32,000 nucleotides of DNA from Candidatus Saccharimonadota bacterium (GCA_020632335.1 JACKFV010000001.1:60001-92000), one strand, 5' to 3'; positions 3,585 through 30,890 are shown, counted from the first letter of the stretch. The notes: generated by a model not told the origin, from the sequence alone. A program made the numbers and translations.

Positions 3585-3612
3585 TAGACCGTGACAAGAG
3601 AATCACTAGCAT
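3585..3612 (+). promoter_or_regulatory. Promoter of the photolyase gene, leaderless geometry
   Basis: TAGACC (3585-3590), a 16-nt spacer, TAGCAT (3607-3612), 6 nt (atcggc), then ATG 3619. Confidence 0.4.
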
Positions 3613-3618
3613 ATCGGC

Positions 3619-9449: not shown

Positions 9450-9486
9450 GGCTTCAGCAGCAGGCTTATTGCTCCACCGGGATGAA

Positions 9487-10609
9487 CTACACTCCCTCAA
9501 AGCGCTGGAGCACGGTAGGTGTATACACATCTCCGTTGGCGTCAAAGGAGATCACTCCCTGCAGCCCCGGGTAGTCCTGCAGCGCATAGAGCGCATCTCG
9601 TACCGCGTCGGCATCCGTGGTGCCCGCTACCGCAATAGCGTGATAGAGCATATCGACCGAGTCCCCAAATATAGCAATCTGGTCTGGCATAGAGGGTTCC
9701 GCTCCATAGCGTGCCCTATAGCGCTCTAAGAGTGCATTGCCCTGAGGTGTGGGCACTACATCAGCGCTATACACCCCCGGGAGTGAGGCCAGGTAGGAGA
9801 GATAGGTGTCCTCTGCTGTGATGGCACTCTTAGAGATATAGTCCATCACCAGAGGAAGCTGCAGCTGCTGCTCTTCCATCTGCTTCATGATCAGGTCAAA
9901 TTTCTTGGCTGTCTGCACTATGATGAAGATGGCTTCTGCGTCGGTATTTTTGATCCGGGTGAGGCGTGTGCGGAAGTCTGACTCCGACGAGAGGAAGGTC
10001 TCGGTATCCACCACCGTACCGGTATAGGCGCCCAGGATGGAGGCTCCCATACCAATCGCATAGTCGGTCTGCTCCTGTAGTACGGCTATCTTGCTATATT
10101 GCTGGTTCATAAAGCCGCTCAGTGCAGGAGCCTGAGAGGCCGCAACCCCATTAGTACGGAAGATATAGTCGCCCGCATGGGTAATCTCCGGACTGGCGGA
10201 AACCCCCATCATCACCACCCCGGCTCTCTCGGCTATGGGGGCTGCTGCCAAAGTCTCTCCGCTACACACCCCCCGAGGATCAGCGGCACTTTATCCACAT
10301 TAATGAGCTTCTGCGCGGCCATGCTGGCTTCTTTCGGGCTGCACTTTCCGTCCTCCCAGAGGAGCTCCACAGGGCGCCCGGCTATACCTCCTGCCGCATT
10401 CACCTCCTCGGTCATTAGGTTCCAGAGGTTAAATATCATCGTCCCATAGCTACCAGCCGCATCCCCCGTAAGGGGTCCTATGGCTCCGATGCGTATGGCG
10501 TCAGTGCCAGGCCCCACGGGGCTAGGGCTACTACCACAGCCAGCCAGAGTAGCCACTCCTATGAGGAGACATAACCGATATATATATATATATATATATG
10601 AGATTTCAT
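9487..10609 (-). pseudogene. LivJ/LivK-type (type I periplasmic binding protein) solute-binding lipoprotein, frame-disrupted at two simple repeats
   Basis: ORFs 10233-10763 and 9487-10269 join into one colinear binding protein (..VDKVPLILGG/VCSGETLAAAPIAERAGVVMMGVSASPEIT..). The lipobox LAGC follows a hydrophobic stretch. The only nearby ATG (10609) is out of frame because of (AT)11. A second shift occurs at a G6 run (plus-strand C 10269-10274). Confidence 0.7.
10578..10599. repeat. (AT)11 dinucleotide microsatellite
   Basis: Direct reading gives 22 nt of uninterrupted alternating A/T. It is the only such tract in the window. Confidence 0.95.
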
Positions 10610-10615
10610 CTGCAG

Positions 10616-10621
10616 AGAGTA
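10616..10621 (-). promoter_or_regulatory. -10-like hexamer upstream of the binding-protein ATG (leaderless geometry)
   Basis: On the minus strand: TACTCT, then 6 nt (ctgcag), then ATG 10609. A weak -35 candidate TTTACG lies 15 nt upstream. Confidence 0.35.
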
Positions 10622-10698
10622 CAAATACATACACAGCGTAAACGACAGCAATATTATTGCAAGTCCGTATCACGCAAAATACCAAGGATCCGGAGAGT

Positions 10699-13910
<3,212 letters not shown>

Positions 13911-15248: not shown

Positions 15249-15254
15249 GTTGCC

Positions 15255-15282
15255 ACTCTAGCGCCTCCGCAGAACCTGACAA
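15255..15282 (-). promoter_or_regulatory. Promoter of glyA, leaderless geometry
   Basis: On the minus strand: TTGTCA, a 16-nt spacer, TAGAGT, 6 nt (ggcaac), then ATG 15248. Confidence 0.45.
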
Positions 15283-15288
15283 GGGAGG

Positions 15289-15316
15289 TTGACACCATGC
15301 CACAGCTGCCTAGGGT
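15289..15316 (+). promoter_or_regulatory. Promoter of tRNA-Ser
   Basis: TTGACA (15289-15294), a 16-nt spacer, TAGGGT (15311-15316), about 21 nt before the tRNA 5' end. It lies back-to-back with the glyA promoter. Confidence 0.5.
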
Positions 15317-15337
15317 GCGTGCGTTCTTTCTCTTTAC

Positions 15338-15427
15338 GGACAGGTGACAGAGTGGCCGAATGTGCTTCCCTGCTAAGGAAGTGTGCCCGTAAGGGTACCG
15401 AGGGTTCGAATCCCTCCCTGTCCGCCA
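15338..15427 (+). tRNA. tRNA-Ser (anticodon GCU), class II with long variable arm
   Basis: Acceptor GGACAGG/CCTGTCC, D arm ACA-GAGTGGCCGAA-TGT, anticodon arm CTTCC-CTGCTAA-GGAAG (anticodon GCT), variable arm TGTGCCCGTAAGGGTACC, T arm GAGGG-TTCGAAT-CCCTC, and G plus an encoded CCA. Length 90 nt. Confidence 0.9.
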
Positions 15428-15505
15428 CACCCAGGTTATTGGAAGACGAATAATAAACAGCACTTTGAAGGAGTTCCCGTCTCTCCAGCAGAACACATAC
15501 TCTCA

Positions 15506-15541
15506 CACCGAGGAGACGCATTTGTCTCCTCGGTGTTTTCT
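15506..15541 (+). terminator. Rho-independent terminator after tRNA-Ser
   Basis: Perfect 12-bp stem CACCGAGGAGAC-gcattt-GTCTCCTCGGTG followed by TTTTCT. It lies just beyond the stop of the convergent oxidase gene. Confidence 0.7.
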
Positions 15542-15547
15542 CTAGCG

Positions 15548-17281
15548 CTAATGGCCCCGCAGCGCCTCGGGGACGGTATACTCCCCCACCGTGAAGGGGA
15601 ACATCATGCCGCTGTGCAGGTGCTCGGCTATGTGGCAGTGGGCCATCCAGACTCCTGGGGTGGTGTTCTCGAGCAGAAGCCGGACGCGTTGCCCGGCCGG
15701 TATGAGCACCGTATCCTTCCACTGGAGGCTGCTATTAGGCTCTCCATCACGACTGAGCACCACAAACCGCTGCCCGTGGAAGTGTAGCGGGTGCTGCATG
15801 GGGTGCATGCTCTGGGGGTCGTTGTAGACCTCGATGACCACCCTCTCCCCTTCGGCAAAGCGCCAGTCTATCGCCTCATTTACCGCGCCGGTGTCTGTAT
15901 CTATCAGCTGCCAGGTAGTATTCTCACTCGTCGACATTCGGTTCATGGCCTCCATGGGGTCACTCCACTCTATGCCGTCTGTCTCTGTTGCCGCCTGCCC
16001 ATGCATCCTATGGCTCCCCATACCCTGCCCCATGCCAGGCATATCTATGCTCATGCGCAGGTGCTTCTCAGCCGGCTGTCCCTCCAGCGTAGCGATGTAC
16101 TGGCGCAACTCTGCGTAGTCGGCGCTGTTGTCTCGTAGGGTGTCAAAGAGGACGCGAGCGTCACTCTCCGCCGTACTACTCACCGTCACTGTGCCCAGCG
16201 TGACCGTGCCCTCTGGGGTGTTATTCCGGATGCTATAGCTGCCCGTCTCGGGGTAGTAGACCTCTAGTATCCACCGCTCAGCCGGGGCTATGGTGATCCC
16301 CTCGGGCCCCACCAGCTGCTCATGCTCTGCCCGCCCCAGGTCTCCACCGACCACCTTCATCTGCGCACCGTCTACTTGTAGTCGGAATGGTCGCGCGTTG
16401 GCGGTATTCGTCACGAAGTAGCGTACCGTCTCTCCCGCCTGCGCCGTTGCCTGGAAGGCCTGCTCATTATTCAGCAACTGCACACTGCCGTAGCGGCCCA
16501 TCATGGCGTGGTCTATGGTGTCGGTGCGGTAGGGCTCAAGGCTGAGATCATCGAGGATCCAGCTCTCCTCACGGACTCCCGCCGTCCAGTAGTCGGGCAT
16601 GCTCGGCTCTACGAGGTAGTTGCCATACAGGCCGCCGTCCTGCTGGCGGTCCTCCCGTACGTGGGGGTGGTACCAGAAGACCCCCGCATCCGGGAACTCC
16701 AGCGTATAACTGAAGGTCTGACCCGGCTGCACCGCGGGGGAGGGGTTGCCTGGTACGCCGTCCATGGTGTAGTCGCCGCGCAGTCCGTGGCTGTGGATGG
16801 TGGTTTCTTCGTCGATAGTATTGGTGAAGTGCAGGGTAATCTGGGCTCCCTGAGGCACCTGGAGTATCGGCCCGGGGATCATCTCGTTATACGCTAGCCG
16901 CCGGAGCGTCCGTCCGCCCACCTGCTGCTGTACAAATCCTGCGGTCAGGCCATAGCTGTCGCCATCACGCAGCGGTACCACTATGGGTTGCGTAGCATGA
17001 GGGAGGCCATCAGTACTGGTGTCATAGTGCTCTGGCAGCACAGACGAGGAAGCCTCATGCGGCGCTGCGTCCTTTAGTATCGGCTGCCCGTACTCGTCAA
17101 AGGTACAATCACCCATCCACATCCCCCCCATCTGGTGGCAGGGGAAGCCCCGCATAGCGTCCATCATGGCCGTCATGCTGGGGTCATCAGTACTGGTGGA
17201 GGGGGCTGGAGCTGGTGAAGTTCCCTGACCACAGCCGGTGAGAGCCGTAGCCAGAGCGAGAATAGAAGCGATTTTTCTCAT
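15548..17281 (-). CDS. Multicopper oxidase lipoprotein (CueO/CopA-like)
   Basis: All four copper-ligand motifs are present: HSHG, WYHPH, HPLHFHG and HCHIAEHLHSGMM. Lipoprotein signal MRKIASILALATALTGC, with start set at ATG 17281. Met/His-rich segments are also present. Confidence 0.9.
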   Translation of the reverse strand: MRKIASILALATALTGCGQGTSPAPAPSTSTDDPSMTAMMDAMRGFPCHQMGGMWMGDCTFDEYGQPILKDAAPHEASSSVLPEHYDTSTDGLPHATQPIVVPLRDGDSYGLTAGFVQQQVGGRTLRRLAYNEMIPGPILQVPQGAQITLHFTNTIDEETTIHSHGLRGDYTMDGVPGNPSPAVQPGQTFSYTLEFPDAGVFWYHPHVREDRQQDGGLYGNYLVEPSMPDYWTAGVREESWILDDLSLEPYRTDTIDHAMMGRYGSVQLLNNEQAFQATAQAGETVRYFVTNTANARPFRLQVDGAQMKVVGGDLGRAEHEQLVGPEGITIAPAERWILEVYYPETGSYSIRNNTPEGTVTLGTVTVSSTAESDARVLFDTLRDNSADYAELRQYIATLEGQPAEKHLRMSIDMPGMGQGMGSHRMHGQAATETDGIEWSDPMEAMNRMSTSENTTWQLIDTDTGAVNEAIDWRFAEGERVVIEVYNDPQSMHPMQHPLHFHGQRFVVLSRDGEPNSSLQWKDTVLIPAGQRVRLLLENTTPGVWMAHCHIAEHLHSGMMFPFTVGEYTVPEALRGH

Positions 17282-17347
17282 GGTAGAAGGGGAAAAAGAA
17301 AGCCTGGTGAAGAGAAAGCCCACCACGCAGAGGCCTGTGCCTCCCCT

Positions 17348-17871: not shown

Positions 17872-18582
17872 ATGCACCACACCTACGCTGTCCATGGTAT
17901 GACCTGCTCCAGCTGCGCCCAGAGCGTCCGCGCGGCCCTGGAGTCCAGCCTGAACATCACCGCTGCCGTGGTGGACCTCAGCGCCAAGACCGTCACCATC
18001 ACCATGCAGGCGCCCATGGAGGTCGCCGCGCTGAATGCCCTCCTCCCCCCGAAGTACACCCTAACGCCCTTACCCGTGCCTACGGAGGCGCTGCCCGAGA
18101 AGTCTCTCAGGACCTACTGGCCACTGGTGCTGGTGGTGTTGTATATCATTGGTGGTACGCTGCACCTGAGCTGGCTGCGGGGCGCATTCCTCCCCTCTGC
18201 CATGATGATGGACTTCATGGGGCTCTTCTTTGTGGGGTTTGCGTTCTTCAAACTTCTGGACCTCAAAGGCTTTGCCATGAGCTACCGCAGCTATGATATC
18301 CTCACCCGGCGCTGGCCCGTGTGGGGCTACATCTACCCCTTTGTGGAGCTAGCGCTGGGGCTACTCTACCTGCGCCAGATAGCCCCCCTGTGGACGAGCG
18401 CTGCCACTGTGGTGGTCATGGGGTTCAGTATCATCGGGGTCATCCAGAGCGTACGGCAAAGGCGTGCCATCAAGTGCGCCTGCCTGGGCACCGGGTTTAA
18501 CCTGCCTATGAGCACCATCACCATCATTGAGGACGCCCTCATGATCCTCATGGCGCTGTGGATGGGGTTCTCTAGCCTCTAG
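17872..18582 (+). CDS. Heavy-metal-associated (HMA) domain fused to a MauE/DoxX-like multi-pass membrane domain
   Basis: N-terminal ferredoxin-like HMA motif YAVHGMTCSSCAQSV (CxxC). The C-terminal half has about 4 predicted TM helices ending with the KCACLGTGFNLP Cys pair, as I recall for MauE-family proteins. Confidence 0.7.
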   Translation: MHHTYAVHGMTCSSCAQSVRAALESSLNITAAVVDLSAKTVTITMQAPMEVAALNALLPPKYTLTPLPVPTEALPEKSLRTYWPLVLVVLYIIGGTLHLSWLRGAFLPSAMMMDFMGLFFVGFAFFKLLDLKGFAMSYRSYDILTRRWPVWGYIYPFVELALGLLYLRQIAPLWTSAATVVVMGFSIIGVIQSVRQRRAIKCACLGTGFNLPMSTITIIEDALMILMALWMGFSSL

Positions 18583-18604: not shown

Positions 18605-18632
18605 TTGCAGTGCAGCTGCGCCTCCCTACACT
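18605..18632 (+). promoter_or_regulatory. Candidate promoter of the helicase gene
   Basis: TTGCAG (18605-18610), a 16-nt spacer, TACACT (18627-18632), 10 nt, then ATG 18643. Confidence 0.4.
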
Positions 18633-18642
18633 GGGGCTAGCA

Positions 18643-20238
18643 ATGCAGCAATCCACCGCCATCGCTCTGCTGAAGTCTGGGAGGAATATTCTCCTCACCG
18701 GGAGTGCCGGTACGGGCAAGACTTACGTGCTCCAGCGCTTCATCCAGAGCCTGCGCGAGCACCATATCCCCGTAGCCATCACCGCCACCACGGGCATCGC
18801 GGCTACGCACATCGGCGGGCAGACCATTCACTCCTGGTCTGGTATGGGCATACGGGAGCACGTGAATGCTGCTTTTTTTGAGAAAATACTCCAGAAGAAA
18901 AAAACCAGCCAGCCCATACAGCACGCGCAGGTGCTCATCATCGACGAGATCAGCATGATGCACCGCCGCATGCTGCAGAACCTCGACCAGCTGTTGCGCT
19001 ATGTACGGAGTAATTTTGAGCCCTTTGGCGGGTTGCAGGTGGTGCTCTGCGGAGATTTCTTCCAGCTGCCCCCGATTGCTACATTCCCCGAACCCTCTGA
19101 GCAGAAGTACTGCTTTATGGCGCCGGCCTTTGCGGAGGGGCAGTTCACCGTCTGCTTCCTCACCCAGCAGTACCGGCAGGACGACCACAGCCTGGCTGGT
19201 TTCCTCAATGAAATCCGCAGCGGCACGCTCCACGGTAGTTCCTCTGAGGCCCTGAACGCCTGCATGGTGCGTACGCAGCAGACCCCTCGGGAGGACGTCC
19301 ACACGCGCCTCTACACTCATAATGCTGACGTGGATGAGATCAACGCCCGTGAGCTGGCCAAACTCCCCACCGAGGAGCAGCACTACACTGGCCGTGGCCA
19401 TGGCCCTCGTCATCTGGTAGAGGCACTGCAGAAGAGCGTACTGGCGCCCAAGCTCCTCTGCTTGAAGATCGGCGCCCGGGTCATGTGCGTGAAAAATAAC
19501 CCCGATGAAGGCTACTACAACGGCACGCTGGGGGTGGTAGAGGCCTATGATGCGGAGACCGGCTACCCCGATGTACGGCTGCATGACGGGACCCTGGTGA
19601 CGATGAAGCCGGCCGAGTGGAGCATCACCGGGGATGATGGCAAGCGTGCGGCGTCCTTTACGCAGATACCGCTGCGGCTGGCCTGGGCCATCACCGTGCA
19701 CAAGAGCCAGGGCATGACGCTGGAGAGCGCGGAGATGGACCTCAGCCATGTCTTTGAACCGGGGCAGGGCTATGTAGCCCTCAGCCGAGTAAAGCGCTGG
19801 GAGGGCCTCTACCTATTAGGCATCAACGAGCAAACACTGGCCATAGACCCCCTGGTACTTCGGGCAGACAGGCGATTCCAGGAGCTGTCTGCCACAGCGG
19901 AGACCTTCGCGCAGGAGCACGCACGGGAGCTGGAGTCCCTCTGGGAGGCCCGCATAGCAGCGCCCCCACCAGTAGCCACCCCTCCCCCAGAAGCCGACCC
20001 CACCGCCTACCTCGAGGCACTGCCTGAGCTCCACCAGCGGGTCTACCACCTGCAGCAGGAGCGCATCACGCCTAAGGGAATCCAGAAGGTACTCGGGCTG
20101 ACCGAGCAGGCCTACGCGTCTGCGGAGCGGGTCATCAGCGCTGCAGAGGAGCTGCAGAGGAGCTCCAGAGCCTCTCCCTCCATGGGCAGAACACCTACCT
20201 CAAGACCCTCCACCTCCTACAGCAAGGCCTCTCCATAG
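18643..20238 (+). CDS. Pif1/RecD-family SF1 helicase, truncated by a frameshift from its C-terminal domain
   Basis: Walker A GSAGTGKTY, Walker B LIIDEISMM, CGDFFQLPPI, and motif VI AITVHKSQGMTL. The last 26 codons (RSSRASPSMGRTPTS..) follow an 11-bp duplication and look like out-of-frame sequence. An alternative GTG start lies at 18610. Confidence 0.85.
   Translation: MQQSTAIALLKSGRNILLTGSAGTGKTYVLQRFIQSLREHHIPVAITATTGIAATHIGGQTIHSWSGMGIREHVNAAFFEKILQKKKTSQPIQHAQVLIIDEISMMHRRMLQNLDQLLRYVRSNFEPFGGLQVVLCGDFFQLPPIATFPEPSEQKYCFMAPAFAEGQFTVCFLTQQYRQDDHSLAGFLNEIRSGTLHGSSSEALNACMVRTQQTPREDVHTRLYTHNADVDEINARELAKLPTEEQHYTGRGHGPRHLVEALQKSVLAPKLLCLKIGARVMCVKNNPDEGYYNGTLGVVEAYDAETGYPDVRLHDGTLVTMKPAEWSITGDDGKRAASFTQIPLRLAWAITVHKSQGMTLESAEMDLSHVFEPGQGYVALSRVKRWEGLYLLGINEQTLAIDPLVLRADRRFQELSATAETFAQEHARELESLWEARIAAPPPVATPPPEADPTAYLEALPELHQRVYHLQQERITPKGIQKVLGLTEQAYASAERVISAAEELQRSSRASPSMGRTPTSRPSTSYSKASP
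20140..20161. repeat. Perfect 11-bp tandem duplication GCTGCAGAGGA x2, followed by the diverged copy GCTCCAGAGCC
   Basis: Direct reading of 20140-20150 and 20151-20161. Removing one copy fuses ORF 18643-20238 in frame to ORF 20244-20522. Confidence 0.95.
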
Positions 20239-25118: not shown

Positions 25119-25970
25119 TTACCACGCCCGCAGCGTCCGCATACCCCGCAGCTGCAGGGTGGGGCGAGCCTCTCCCGTCAGTCCCAGGTTGCGGTGCTCA
25201 GGGGTGTCTGGCAGCTGGAGCCCCATGCGATAGGTAATAAAGGGCTGGGTCTGCGGCAGGCTATACGCGCGGGTAGTGTCGGCATTGGGGTGCAGCACTA
25301 TAGCGAGAGAAGCTACCTCCACCGTGGGGAGTGGCAGTGGCGTCCAGGGTTCGGTCTCCGTCCAGGTGTCGCTCAGGCCATCGCCGTCAGTGTCCTCCCC
25401 CGTGAGGTGCGTCTCCTCCAGCACCCCCGCCGTCACACGCCAGCCCTTACGCTCCGTACCACTCAGGCTCCTCAGCAGCAGCTGCGCTAGCTCCTCTCCC
25501 CCATCGCCTATGCGTATACAGGGGTCAGGCATGCCCTCAGGCGTCATGCCGCCCAGGGTCACGTTGCTGAGGCCATCGCCCGTGGTGTCCCACGCGAAGA
25601 GCCGCCCATACGGCACCTGCGCGCGAGCCTCTGGGGTGTTCTCTGTTGGGGTCTCTGGGGGGAGCTGCCGCGGGTCAAACGCCCTGCACCCGGGCGAGCC
25701 ATAGGCGTCGTGGTACCAGTCGTAGTCGATGGTGTAGCCGTCCGTGAAGGCCTGGAGCCGCTGCTGCATCAGCAGGCTCTCCGCCGCAAAGCCCTCCTCC
25801 ACCCGAGCACGCTCAAACCGCTGGTAGAGCTGCATCACCGCGCCGGTCGCCGTCAGCATCACCAGCGCTCCCACCCCCATCGCCACCAGGAGTTCCAGGA
25901 GGGTAAACCCACGAGTATGCAGTGCACCAGGAGTATTAGTCGCCATAGTGCTCGCGGTTATAGAGGTCAT
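25119..25970 (-). CDS. Prepilin-type N-terminal cleavage/methylation domain protein (large minor-pilin/pseudopilin-like)
   Basis: Class III signal HTRG|FTLLELLVAMGVGALV with Glu at +5. The body carries DTDGDGLSD and TTGDGLSN Asp-Gly motifs. The start may be ATG 25946 (MATNT..). Confidence 0.7.
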   Translation of the reverse strand: MTSITASTMATNTPGALHTRGFTLLELLVAMGVGALVMLTATGAVMQLYQRFERARVEEGFAAESLLMQQRLQAFTDGYTIDYDWYHDAYGSPGCRAFDPRQLPPETPTENTPEARAQVPYGRLFAWDTTGDGLSNVTLGGMTPEGMPDPCIRIGDGGEELAQLLLRSLSGTERKGWRVTAGVLEETHLTGEDTDGDGLSDTWTETEPWTPLPLPTVEVASLAIVLHPNADTTRAYSLPQTQPFITYRMGLQLPDTPEHRNLGLTGEARPTLQLRGMRTLRAW

Positions 25971-26568
25971 AGAGCACTGCGCTCACCGTCAGCCGTTCGC
26001 GGTCACTGGGGCCCCATGCCACGGTAGAATGGGCGGTTATCCGTTGCTCGGTGCAGGTTTCTCGTACTATGGCTCCTCTGCCACACTGCGGAGAGGGATC
26101 ATAACTGAGCGTCAGCCAATGAAAATAAGGCATAGGCTCAGCAGTCACGGTATAGCCCCACAGGCCATCGTCTTGCTCATAGAGCCTATAGGGGCGCGAG
26201 AAGATATCCAGCCCAGGGGTCTCGGTAAGCCATACACGGTCACCCTCTATCATCGCCCTATACTGAGAACCAAACAGTGGCACCTGCGCGCTACAGTCCT
26301 GCACTGGGGTATCTACACATCGCCAGTAGTCGCGCAGCTCGGCCCCATAGCGCAGCGCATTGGTATCCCTCCACTGGTACACCGCCTCGATGCTGCTACT
26401 GGCTATGAGGAGCGCCTCGGTACGCTGCGCAAGGAAACTATCGGTGCGCAGTACCTGCCCAAAAAGCATATAAATACTACTCAGCACCGTGGCGAGAATA
26501 CTCACGGCCAAGAGCACCTCTATGAGGGACTCTCCTGCAGCGCGAGTACGAAGGGCGGGCACGGCCAT
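25936..26568 (-). CDS. Prepilin-type N-terminal domain protein (pseudopilin-like)
   Basis: RAAG|ESLIEVLLAVSILATVL has Gly at -1, Glu at +5 and a hydrophobic helix. It overlaps the downstream pilin-like gene. Confidence 0.6.
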   Translation of the reverse strand: MAVPALRTRAAGESLIEVLLAVSILATVLSSIYMLFGQVLRTDSFLAQRTEALLIASSSIEAVYQWRDTNALRYGAELRDYWRCVDTPVQDCSAQVPLFGSQYRAMIEGDRVWLTETPGLDIFSRPYRLYEQDDGLWGYTVTAEPMPYFHWLTLSYDPSPQCGRGAIVRETCTEQRITAHSTVAWGPSDRERLTVSAVLYDLYNREHYGD

Positions 26569-26619
26569 CTGAGCAGTCTAGCACAGGCCTGCTATGCTGT
26601 CTAGTGCGCACCGGGCTCC

Positions 26620-30820: not shown

Positions 30821-30826
30821 CCTCCC

Positions 30827-30832
30827 ATACTA
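30827..30832 (-). promoter_or_regulatory. -10-like hexamer of the kinase operon (leaderless geometry)
   Basis: On the minus strand: TAGTAT, then 6 nt (gggagg), then ATG 30820. Confidence 0.4.
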
Positions 30833-30890
30833 CCACAACACCTAAAAAAAGGAAGCTTCGATATGCTATATACCGTTGCTTCCTGTAGAG

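Follow-up and report, generated by a model that had tools for sequence, protein, structure and literature searches.

An 11-unit AT microsatellite in the signal-peptide region of a LivK-type lipoprotein gene of Peribacteria: probably a recent pseudogene and possibly a former contingency locus

Does a perfect run of 11 AT dinucleotides, lying between the start codon and the lipobox of a bacterial solute-binding lipoprotein gene, act as a phase-variation switch? The question is raised by a locus on the minus strand of a 32,000-bp stretch of DNA (GCA_020632335.1, JACKFV010000001.1:60001-92000; GC content 59.8%), hereafter the window, whose coordinates are counted from its first letter. The genome is that of an uncultured member of the Peribacteria, which belong to the Candidate Phyla Radiation (CPR). 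A preliminary description of the locus had proposed that the tract is a translational switch, at present OFF, and that a change in the number of repeats would turn the lipoprotein ON. We find that the locus resembles a contingency design yet is not a functioning switch in this genome. The reading that we favour, with a probability of roughly 0.6, is that an orphan LivK-type lipoprotein gene with a hypermutable AT microsatellite has recently become a pseudogene and is possibly a former contingency locus locked off.

The tract itself is real and far beyond chance. Tandem Repeats Finder returned a perfect (AT)11 at 10578..10599 (11.0 copies, 100% match), a regular-expression scan found no second dinucleotide run of at least 4 units anywhere in the 32-kb window, and the longest AT run across 947 kb of unrelated bacterial loci has 6 units. 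The preliminary description had thus been right to call the microsatellite conspicuous at this base composition, and we read the minus strand from the hexamer TACTCT to the TGT codon of the lipobox identically. On that strand the TAG stop of gyrB (10699..10701) is followed by an 89-nucleotide (nt) spacer, TACTCT (10621..10616), ctgcag and an ATG (10609..10607), after which the sequence continues AAA TCT C(AT)11 CGG TTA TGT CTC CTC ATA GGA GTG GCT ACT CTG GCT GGC TGT. The tract occupies codons 4-11 of the frame opened by this ATG, within the n-region of a lipoprotein signal peptide. That frame yields MKSHIYIYIYIGYVSS and closes 16 codons in at a TAG (10561..10559), so that the stop foreseen for 11 units is indeed present.

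The lipobox frame, one base over from the ATG frame, yields RLCLLIGVATLAGC and then enters a Peripla_BP_6 domain. The rest of the signal peptide, R-LCLLIGVAT-LAGC, is encoded at 10536..10577 (minus strand), with the lipobox L-A-G-C at 10536..10547 in line with the LAGC, LVGC and LFGC lipoboxes of the homologues. Translation and alignment to homologues together give a lipobox of the form [LVI][ASTVI][GAS]C behind a hydrophobic h-region and an n-region with positive charge, as expected of a lipoprotein, but no start codon stands in the lipobox frame at the normal distance. The ATG would be in frame with the lipobox at 7, 10 or 13 AT units and is out of frame at 11, and the phase arithmetic put forward earlier was reproduced when the gene was rebuilt in silico. 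A perfect tract near the 5' end of the coding region, long enough to switch and built of units whose length is not divisible by 3, is what a contingency locus would have. A perfect 11-unit dinucleotide repeat is inherently slippage-prone, and the tract is a real hypermutable site whose length can still change.

The body of the gene had been described as that of a LivJ/LivK-type binding protein; the family assignment held, whereas the integrity that it implied did not. Fragment A (10236..10535, minus strand), in the lipobox frame, corresponds to the N-terminal part of lobe 1 and matches PF13458 (Peripla_BP_6) with 68.9 bits over positions 2-77 of the 343-position profile. Fragment B (9490..10268, minus strand), in another frame, matches PF13458 with 80.3 bits over positions 78-331. 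Both scores exceed the curated Pfam cut-off of 31.7 bits, but no single uninterrupted open reading frame (ORF) spans the two lobes. Fragment B is 100% identical to P0001, and 254 amino acids of it are MCB9809419.1, which carries the NCBI label 'ABC transporter substrate-binding protein [Candidatus Peribacteria bacterium]' (ABC, ATP-binding cassette).

The domain is split exactly at profile positions 77/78, at 10269..10274, where the coding strand has a G6 run (C6 on the plus strand); the junction of the two fragments reads atcctcGGGGGGtgtgtagc. One added G (G7) restores ...LILGGVCSGETLAAAPIAE... and ...KVPLILGGVCSGETLAAAPIAE..., and the sequence repaired in this way aligns without gaps to VILGGVCSGETL and ...KVSVILGGVCSGETLGGAPIAE... 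of the closest homologue, P0002. The gap-free alignment of the repaired stretch to the homologues is LILGGVCSGETL. As it stands, the lipobox frame ends at a TAG (10233..10235) 13 codons past the G run.

At the C-terminus, the codons TTT GAG GGA GTG TAG TTC ATC CCG GTG GAG CAA TAA read F-E-G-V-stop-F-I-P-V-E-Q-stop. Alignment to the homologues places the premature TAG (9487..9489, minus strand) at an E/K codon ahead of a conserved F-I-P, and the remnant FIPVEQ with the ancestral stop TAA (9466..9468) now lies untranslated at 9466..9486 (minus strand). In the closest homologues the C-terminus follows the pattern F-[DN]-G-x-[EKD]-F-[IV]-P-x-x, with ends (FIPLKE, FIPVS, FVPAE and FIPLE) that resemble FIPVEQ, and 107 of the 118 homologues have at least 6 residues from the TAG column onward; the premature stop costs the last 7 residues. 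Because the homologues extend past this column and the old C-terminus and its TAA are still recognizable, a point substitution, for example GAG to TAG, appears to have made the stop. A reading of TAG as a sense codon in an alternative code was rejected, since TAG closes gyrB and other genes whose products have the C-termini typical of their families. In particular, the gyrB product ends ...ELDI*, in parallel with ...NLDI* in the Peribacteria loci L001 and L013, and the ELDI-TAG end, matching these NLDI ends, marks TAG as an ordinary stop here. Compared with its intact homologues, the gene thus carries three frame-disrupting lesions, namely the AT phase, the G-run frameshift and the nonsense TAG, as a pseudogene would.

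Versions of the gene were built in silico for each AT number from 7 to 14, combined with G6 or G7. With G6, the in-frame repeat numbers (7, 10 and 13) gave products of 122-126 amino acids, the longest for any number from 7 to 14 being 126, and this in-frame product is a lipoprotein stub with less than one quarter of the binding domain. A product of 371-375 amino acids requires n = 1 mod 3 together with G7, and the full 380 amino acids require reversion of the TAG in addition. No repeat number leads to a full-length protein with the actual G6. Because the G6 frameshift ends the frame so soon afterwards, a change in AT number alone cannot turn the protein on, and the proposal that the repeat number does so fails at this point. 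Mutual compensation of the two frameshifts was also rejected, since the ATG frame stops short of the G run. The likeness to a contingency locus that had been drawn holds for the type and position of the tract, but not for a full-length product or for a tract shared with homologues.

These results bear on the alternative that the locus is a live contingency switch, in which (AT)n toggles translation of the lipoprotein with ON states at n = 1 mod 3, the G-run lesion comes either from an error in the consensus or assembly or from a second slippage site, slower and reversible, and the protein copes with its shortened C-terminus. The tract does follow the native leaderless start and falls in the n-region, where changes of length are tolerated, its unit is not a multiple of 3, its 11 units stand high against the switching lengths of Helicobacter pylori oipA (5-11 CT; PMC10564699), the conserved residues are kept, both frameshifts fall at slippage-prone repeats, and an AT run this long is very rare in high-GC DNA, suggesting selection. 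We nevertheless consider a live switch unlikely: in the present sequence the product is at most 126 amino acids at any repeat number, no large ORF is broken at the 28 remaining G/C runs of at least 6 bases, so homopolymer error is uncommon here, a nonsense substitution is present too, the design is shared by none of the 118 homologues, and G6/G7 is short for a practical switch. The homopolymer tracts that switch in Campylobacter and Neisseria are typically 8 or more.

The remainder of the window bears indirectly on whether the lesions are true mutations. It holds 43 homopolymers of at least 6 bases, 29 of them G or C, and none of the other 28 G/C runs breaks a large ORF. Complete single-frame domains are found for PBP1A-like, photolyase, M23 peptidase, miaA, gyrB, PilT-like ATPase, SHMT, multicopper oxidase, Pif1-like helicase, Mfd and histidine kinase genes. 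Because every other large gene is intact, homopolymer indel error appears to be uncommon in this assembly. The TAG lesion, unlike a repeat-length error, is a substitution, and three lesions in one 1.1-kb gene, as opposed to none detected in about 30 kb of neighbours, point to a real pseudogene. We infer that the lesions are true mutations and that assembly error is unlikely. Runs of at least 5 bases on the plus strand number 82 for C and 34 for G; since most genes lie on the minus strand, G runs are enriched on coding strands, and the broken G6 belongs to this class.

An artefact would mean that both frame problems arose in assembly or sequencing and that the real gene is intact and constitutive, for example with 10 AT units and G7. 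Both frameshifts fall exactly in low-complexity runs, the 630,865-bp contig could derive from long reads, and AT dinucleotide runs are prone to polymerase stutter and coverage loss. This account is nonetheless quite improbable, given the roughly 30 kb of neighbouring coding sequence with 42 other homopolymers of at least 6 bases and no broken large gene, and given the TAG substitution, which it leaves unexplained. Moreover, an AT tract of 10 or 11 units would still be hypermutable, so that an artefact of this kind collapses into the live switch.

The start codon is the next element on which the argument turns. ATG 10609 is probably the native start of the lipoprotein gene, with the -10-like hexamer TACTCT (10616..10621, minus strand) 6 nt upstream in the manner of a leaderless promoter. 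It gives the MK start of the homologues, which begin MKK..., MKY... or MKQ..., and the layout of TANNNT, 6 nt and ATG ahead of the tract is as first described. Among the gene starts of the window, a Shine-Dalgarno (SD)-like motif occurs at 1 of 23, whereas a TANNNT box whose end lies 4-9 nt upstream of the start codon occurs at 9 of 23, in 7 of these at exactly 6 nt (background over all ATG/GTG codons, 5.7%; binomial p = 2.5e-6). Examples are found at 15249..15264 (SHMT), 26569..26584 (pilin-like), 30821..30836 (histidine kinase) and 3603..3618 (photolyase), and the TACTCT of the lipoprotein gene has the modal spacing of the window. These counts suggest that transcripts in this Peribacteria genome are as a rule leaderless, and the scarcity of SD motifs agrees with a survey in which Candidatus Peribacter riflensis counts as 'SD-scarce' (PMC10783764). 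When 10400..10800 was scanned for generic sigma-70 promoters and terminators, the only candidate was a promoter-like site on the plus strand, no better than chance; no terminator was called, and neither the TACTCT hexamer nor anything else on the strand of the gene was picked up.

The lipobox frame is open upstream through the tract as far as ATG 10763 inside gyrB, which runs counter to the earlier statement that no other in-frame ATG precedes the lipobox; a second ATG, at 10630, is in the same frame as ATG 10609. The open frame includes GTG 10634, which is in the lipobox frame at 11 units (MYVFVLSADEISYIYIYIYRLCLL...) and would give a 33-residue leader that contains D and E, bearing out the remark that the nearest in-frame GTG adds acidic residues. 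One could therefore suppose that the tract is no frame switch at all, because translation starts elsewhere, for instance at GTG 10634, or because the tract serves as an AT-rich promoter or DNA-structure element. We regard this as very improbable. Both a TANNNT box and an SD-like motif are missing at GTG 10634, its 33-residue signal with acidic residues compares poorly with the family mode of 17-19, and ATG 10609 has the modal promoter spacing and a family-typical MK. The product would also end at the G6 frameshift whichever start were used. A structural element is opposed by folding at chance level (z = +0.54 and -0.61) and by the lack of an Rfam match. A promoter-spacer mechanism like that of the hif (TA)n repeat was rejected, since both the -10-like box and the start codon precede the tract.

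Comparison with relatives suggests how the tract arose. Among the homologues with a lipobox-like motif, the lipobox cysteine is residue 17-19 in 41 of 68, and cutting the tract to one AT unit gives MKSHRLCLLIGVATLAGC, in which the cysteine is residue 18. Since the one-unit version places the cysteine there, the tract appears to be secondary, grown by about 20 nt out of one CAT codon. Orthologues had been suggested as a check on the tract; none of the 118 homologues, including the paralogue on the same contig, has a dinucleotide-type dipeptide repeat in its first 45 residues, and the DNA of the closest homologue has no such repeat. The tract therefore appears to be derived and its design not a trait of the family.

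A search for relatives returned 1557 homologues, the best non-self identity being 44% (P0002), and, the self match aside, no protein exceeded 44% identity among 5.8 billion clusters. Exact-protein look-ups with PilT, SHMT, fragment B, P0001 and P0004 found no other assembly that carries them, and a pattern of the tract flanks with a variable gap had 0 matches in metagenome contigs. A gyrB search of GTDB representatives gave a best match of 59% (Peribacteria L001), and gyrB is not followed by a binding-protein gene in L001 or in L013. With the HhH-GPD glycosylase the best match in metagenome contigs was 68% (L084), and the binding-protein gene was not adjacent. The repaired protein deviates at 4 of 51 columns that are at least 90% conserved, compared with a homologue mean of 1.9 (sd 2.5), and 18 of the 118 homologues deviate at least as much. 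As a sign of decay, substitutions at conserved columns thus do not discriminate here.

Taken together, these data favour a recently pseudogenised gene, for which the following course of events may be proposed. A single CAT codon in the n-region (ancestrally about MKSH-RLCLLIGVATLAGC) would have grown by replication slippage to C(AT)11, an expansion that would have put the native leaderless ATG out of the lipobox frame. Separately from the tract, a G7 run would have lost one base to become the present G6, shifting the frame inside lobe 1, and a point substitution would have created a TAG seven codons ahead of the ancestral stop. With the downstream lesions remaining, no tract length would restore the protein and the gene would be locked OFF. 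The lack of measurable decay at conserved columns implies that inactivation was recent, or else that the gene is still alive; from the sequence we take it to have been recent. The tract was probably already long while the gene functioned, because 11 perfect units are unlikely to have arisen from 1-2 so quickly by neutral slippage. A contingency gene in its OFF phase would be invisible to selection and would gather secondary lesions, which would account for all three, and the locus may thus be a former contingency locus that decayed in the OFF phase.

Several observations weigh against this interpretation. The absence of amino-acid decay is equally expected of a live gene, the loss of 7 C-terminal residues might be tolerable, and NCBI lists fragment B as an ordinary protein with no pseudogene flag. 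The G6 call and the AT count are those of the assembled consensus, and both frameshifts are at simple repeats, where consensus errors and true heterogeneity concentrate. Furthermore, (AT)11 at 60% GC is hard to reach by a short neutral drift and hints at selection for mutability, past or present. Mainly because the lack of measurable decay cuts both ways, we keep a sizeable probability on a switch that is live or once was.

The genomic setting fits the pseudogene interpretation. The binding-protein gene stands as an orphan, with gyrB on one side and a convergent HhH-GPD glycosylase gene on the other, and its neighbours (gyrB, the glycosylase, M23 peptidase and miaA) include no ABC permease or ATPase. 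Such an association is usual for LivJ/LivK-type binding proteins, though not obligatory. P0002, with its 44% identity, heads a full operon in which two permease and two ATPase genes lie downstream (L081 6001..13134, as against 9466..10609 in the window). An intact paralogue, P0004 (MCB9809576.1, 391 amino acids, MKYTAFSAFAVLLLAGCG...), is encoded on the same contig, about 157 accession numbers away. The orphan state and the intact paralogue fit a dispensable copy that is being lost from a small genome.

The upstream neighbour, gyrB (10699..12645, minus strand), is intact, with four gyrB Pfam domains, a complete C-terminal domain and a TAG stop. An RNA element or riboswitch in the spacer between gyrB and the lipoprotein gene was rejected: Rfam gave no match at E <=1 on the region or the spacer, and the RNA folds of the spacer and the 5' coding region were no stabler than shuffled sequences, with the unremarkable z-scores given above. 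The hairpin formed by (AU)11 is trivial self-pairing of the repeat. About 40 nt past the gyrB stop lies a 13-nt palindrome, GCAATAATATTGC (10648..10660, minus strand), followed by TGTCGTTT. It may be a weak terminator, but it is too weak to be named one with assurance, was not picked up by the scan and folds no better than shuffled sequence.

Other features of the window were recorded in passing. Directly upstream of gyrB is a PilT/T2SSE-type ATPase gene (12675..13910, minus strand), and two proteins have N-terminal methylation motifs of type IV pilins (25119..25970 and 25936..26568, both minus strand); the ATPase and the two pilin-motif proteins look like type IV pilus machinery. A three-domain multicopper oxidase gene (15548..17326, minus strand) adjoins a divergent gene for a protein that joins a heavy-metal-associated domain to a MauE-type membrane domain (17872..18582, plus strand); together they make up a small cluster for copper handling, which one would not quite expect in a reduced CPR genome. 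An ORF of 154 amino acids without a family match (15258..15722, minus strand) shares 175 nt with the 3' end of the oxidase ORF, probably because of an over-extended GTG start. A further tandem repeat, of 11 nt (GCTGCAGAGGA; 2.8 copies, 95% match, 20140..20170) and thus with a unit that is not a multiple of 3, sits at the 3' end of the ORF of a Pif1-like helicase (18610..20238).

How does the locus compare with known switches? By mechanism the closest layout is that of H. pylori oipA, and also of hopZ, sabA and babB, where, as here, a dinucleotide repeat lies in the signal-peptide region of a surface-protein gene. In oipA the reading frame depends on the number of CT repeats within the sequence that encodes the signal peptide, a number altered by slipped-strand mispairing (PMC10564699). 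Those repeats are CT and belong to outer-membrane proteins, and their polymorphism and ON states are documented over hundreds of strains, whereas the present locus has an AT repeat in a lipoprotein gene and no ON state unless a second lesion is repaired. For an ABC transporter, the parallel is Mycoplasma fermentans p78, a surface lipoprotein of an ABC-transporter operon that is described, where it is cited in PMC3711429, as switched by frameshift in a short coding repeat. Both are genes for ABC-transporter surface lipoproteins with a frame repeat in the coding region, but the p78 tract is poly-A and its gene lies inside a transporter operon, whereas the gene in the window has (AT)n and is an orphan. 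Switching of p78 was shown experimentally, and Theiss and Wise (1997) are reported to describe the position of its tract.

In Neisseria opa genes, CTCTT pentamer repeats lie in the signal-peptide coding region, and Haemophilus influenzae has tetranucleotide contingency loci. Like the present tract, these repeats stand in a leader region, a variable leader length is tolerated, and one frame in three is ON; they differ in their units, in belonging to multi-copy families of host-adapted pathogens, in their intact gene bodies and in being conserved among paralogues and strains. H. influenzae hifA/hifB share with the locus the TA/AT motif and a similar unit number, their (TA)n promoter-spacer repeat having about 9-11 units, but that repeat alters the -35/-10 spacing, and hence transcription, whereas the tract described here can act only on the reading frame. 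Ordinary slippage pseudogenes also show several independent lesions, intact homologues, a lost operon context and an intact paralogue elsewhere; what they rarely have is a perfect 11-unit dinucleotide microsatellite, especially of AT at 60% GC. A full-text search of the literature found no paper that joins phase variation, simple sequence repeats and CPR.

There is a small chance that the locus is, or very recently was, a repeat-driven phase-variable lipoprotein gene, with its AT tract behind a leaderless start and a population of mixed tract lengths and of G6 and G7. It would then be the first contingency locus reported in CPR, here in Peribacteria; the CPR group consists of ultra-small and probably host-attached bacteria. 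Were tract lengths to differ within a living population, in a gene with no other damage, repeat-driven bet-hedging would extend from host-adapted pathogens to environmental CPR, and would do so in a setting of leaderless translation. The case also teaches that an argument from repeat phase should be checked against the whole ORF, since two downstream lesions change the conclusion here. For this genome, the evidence points to an ordinary event, the loss of an orphan binding-protein gene in which the AT microsatellite would be the earliest lesion or else what is left of a former switch.

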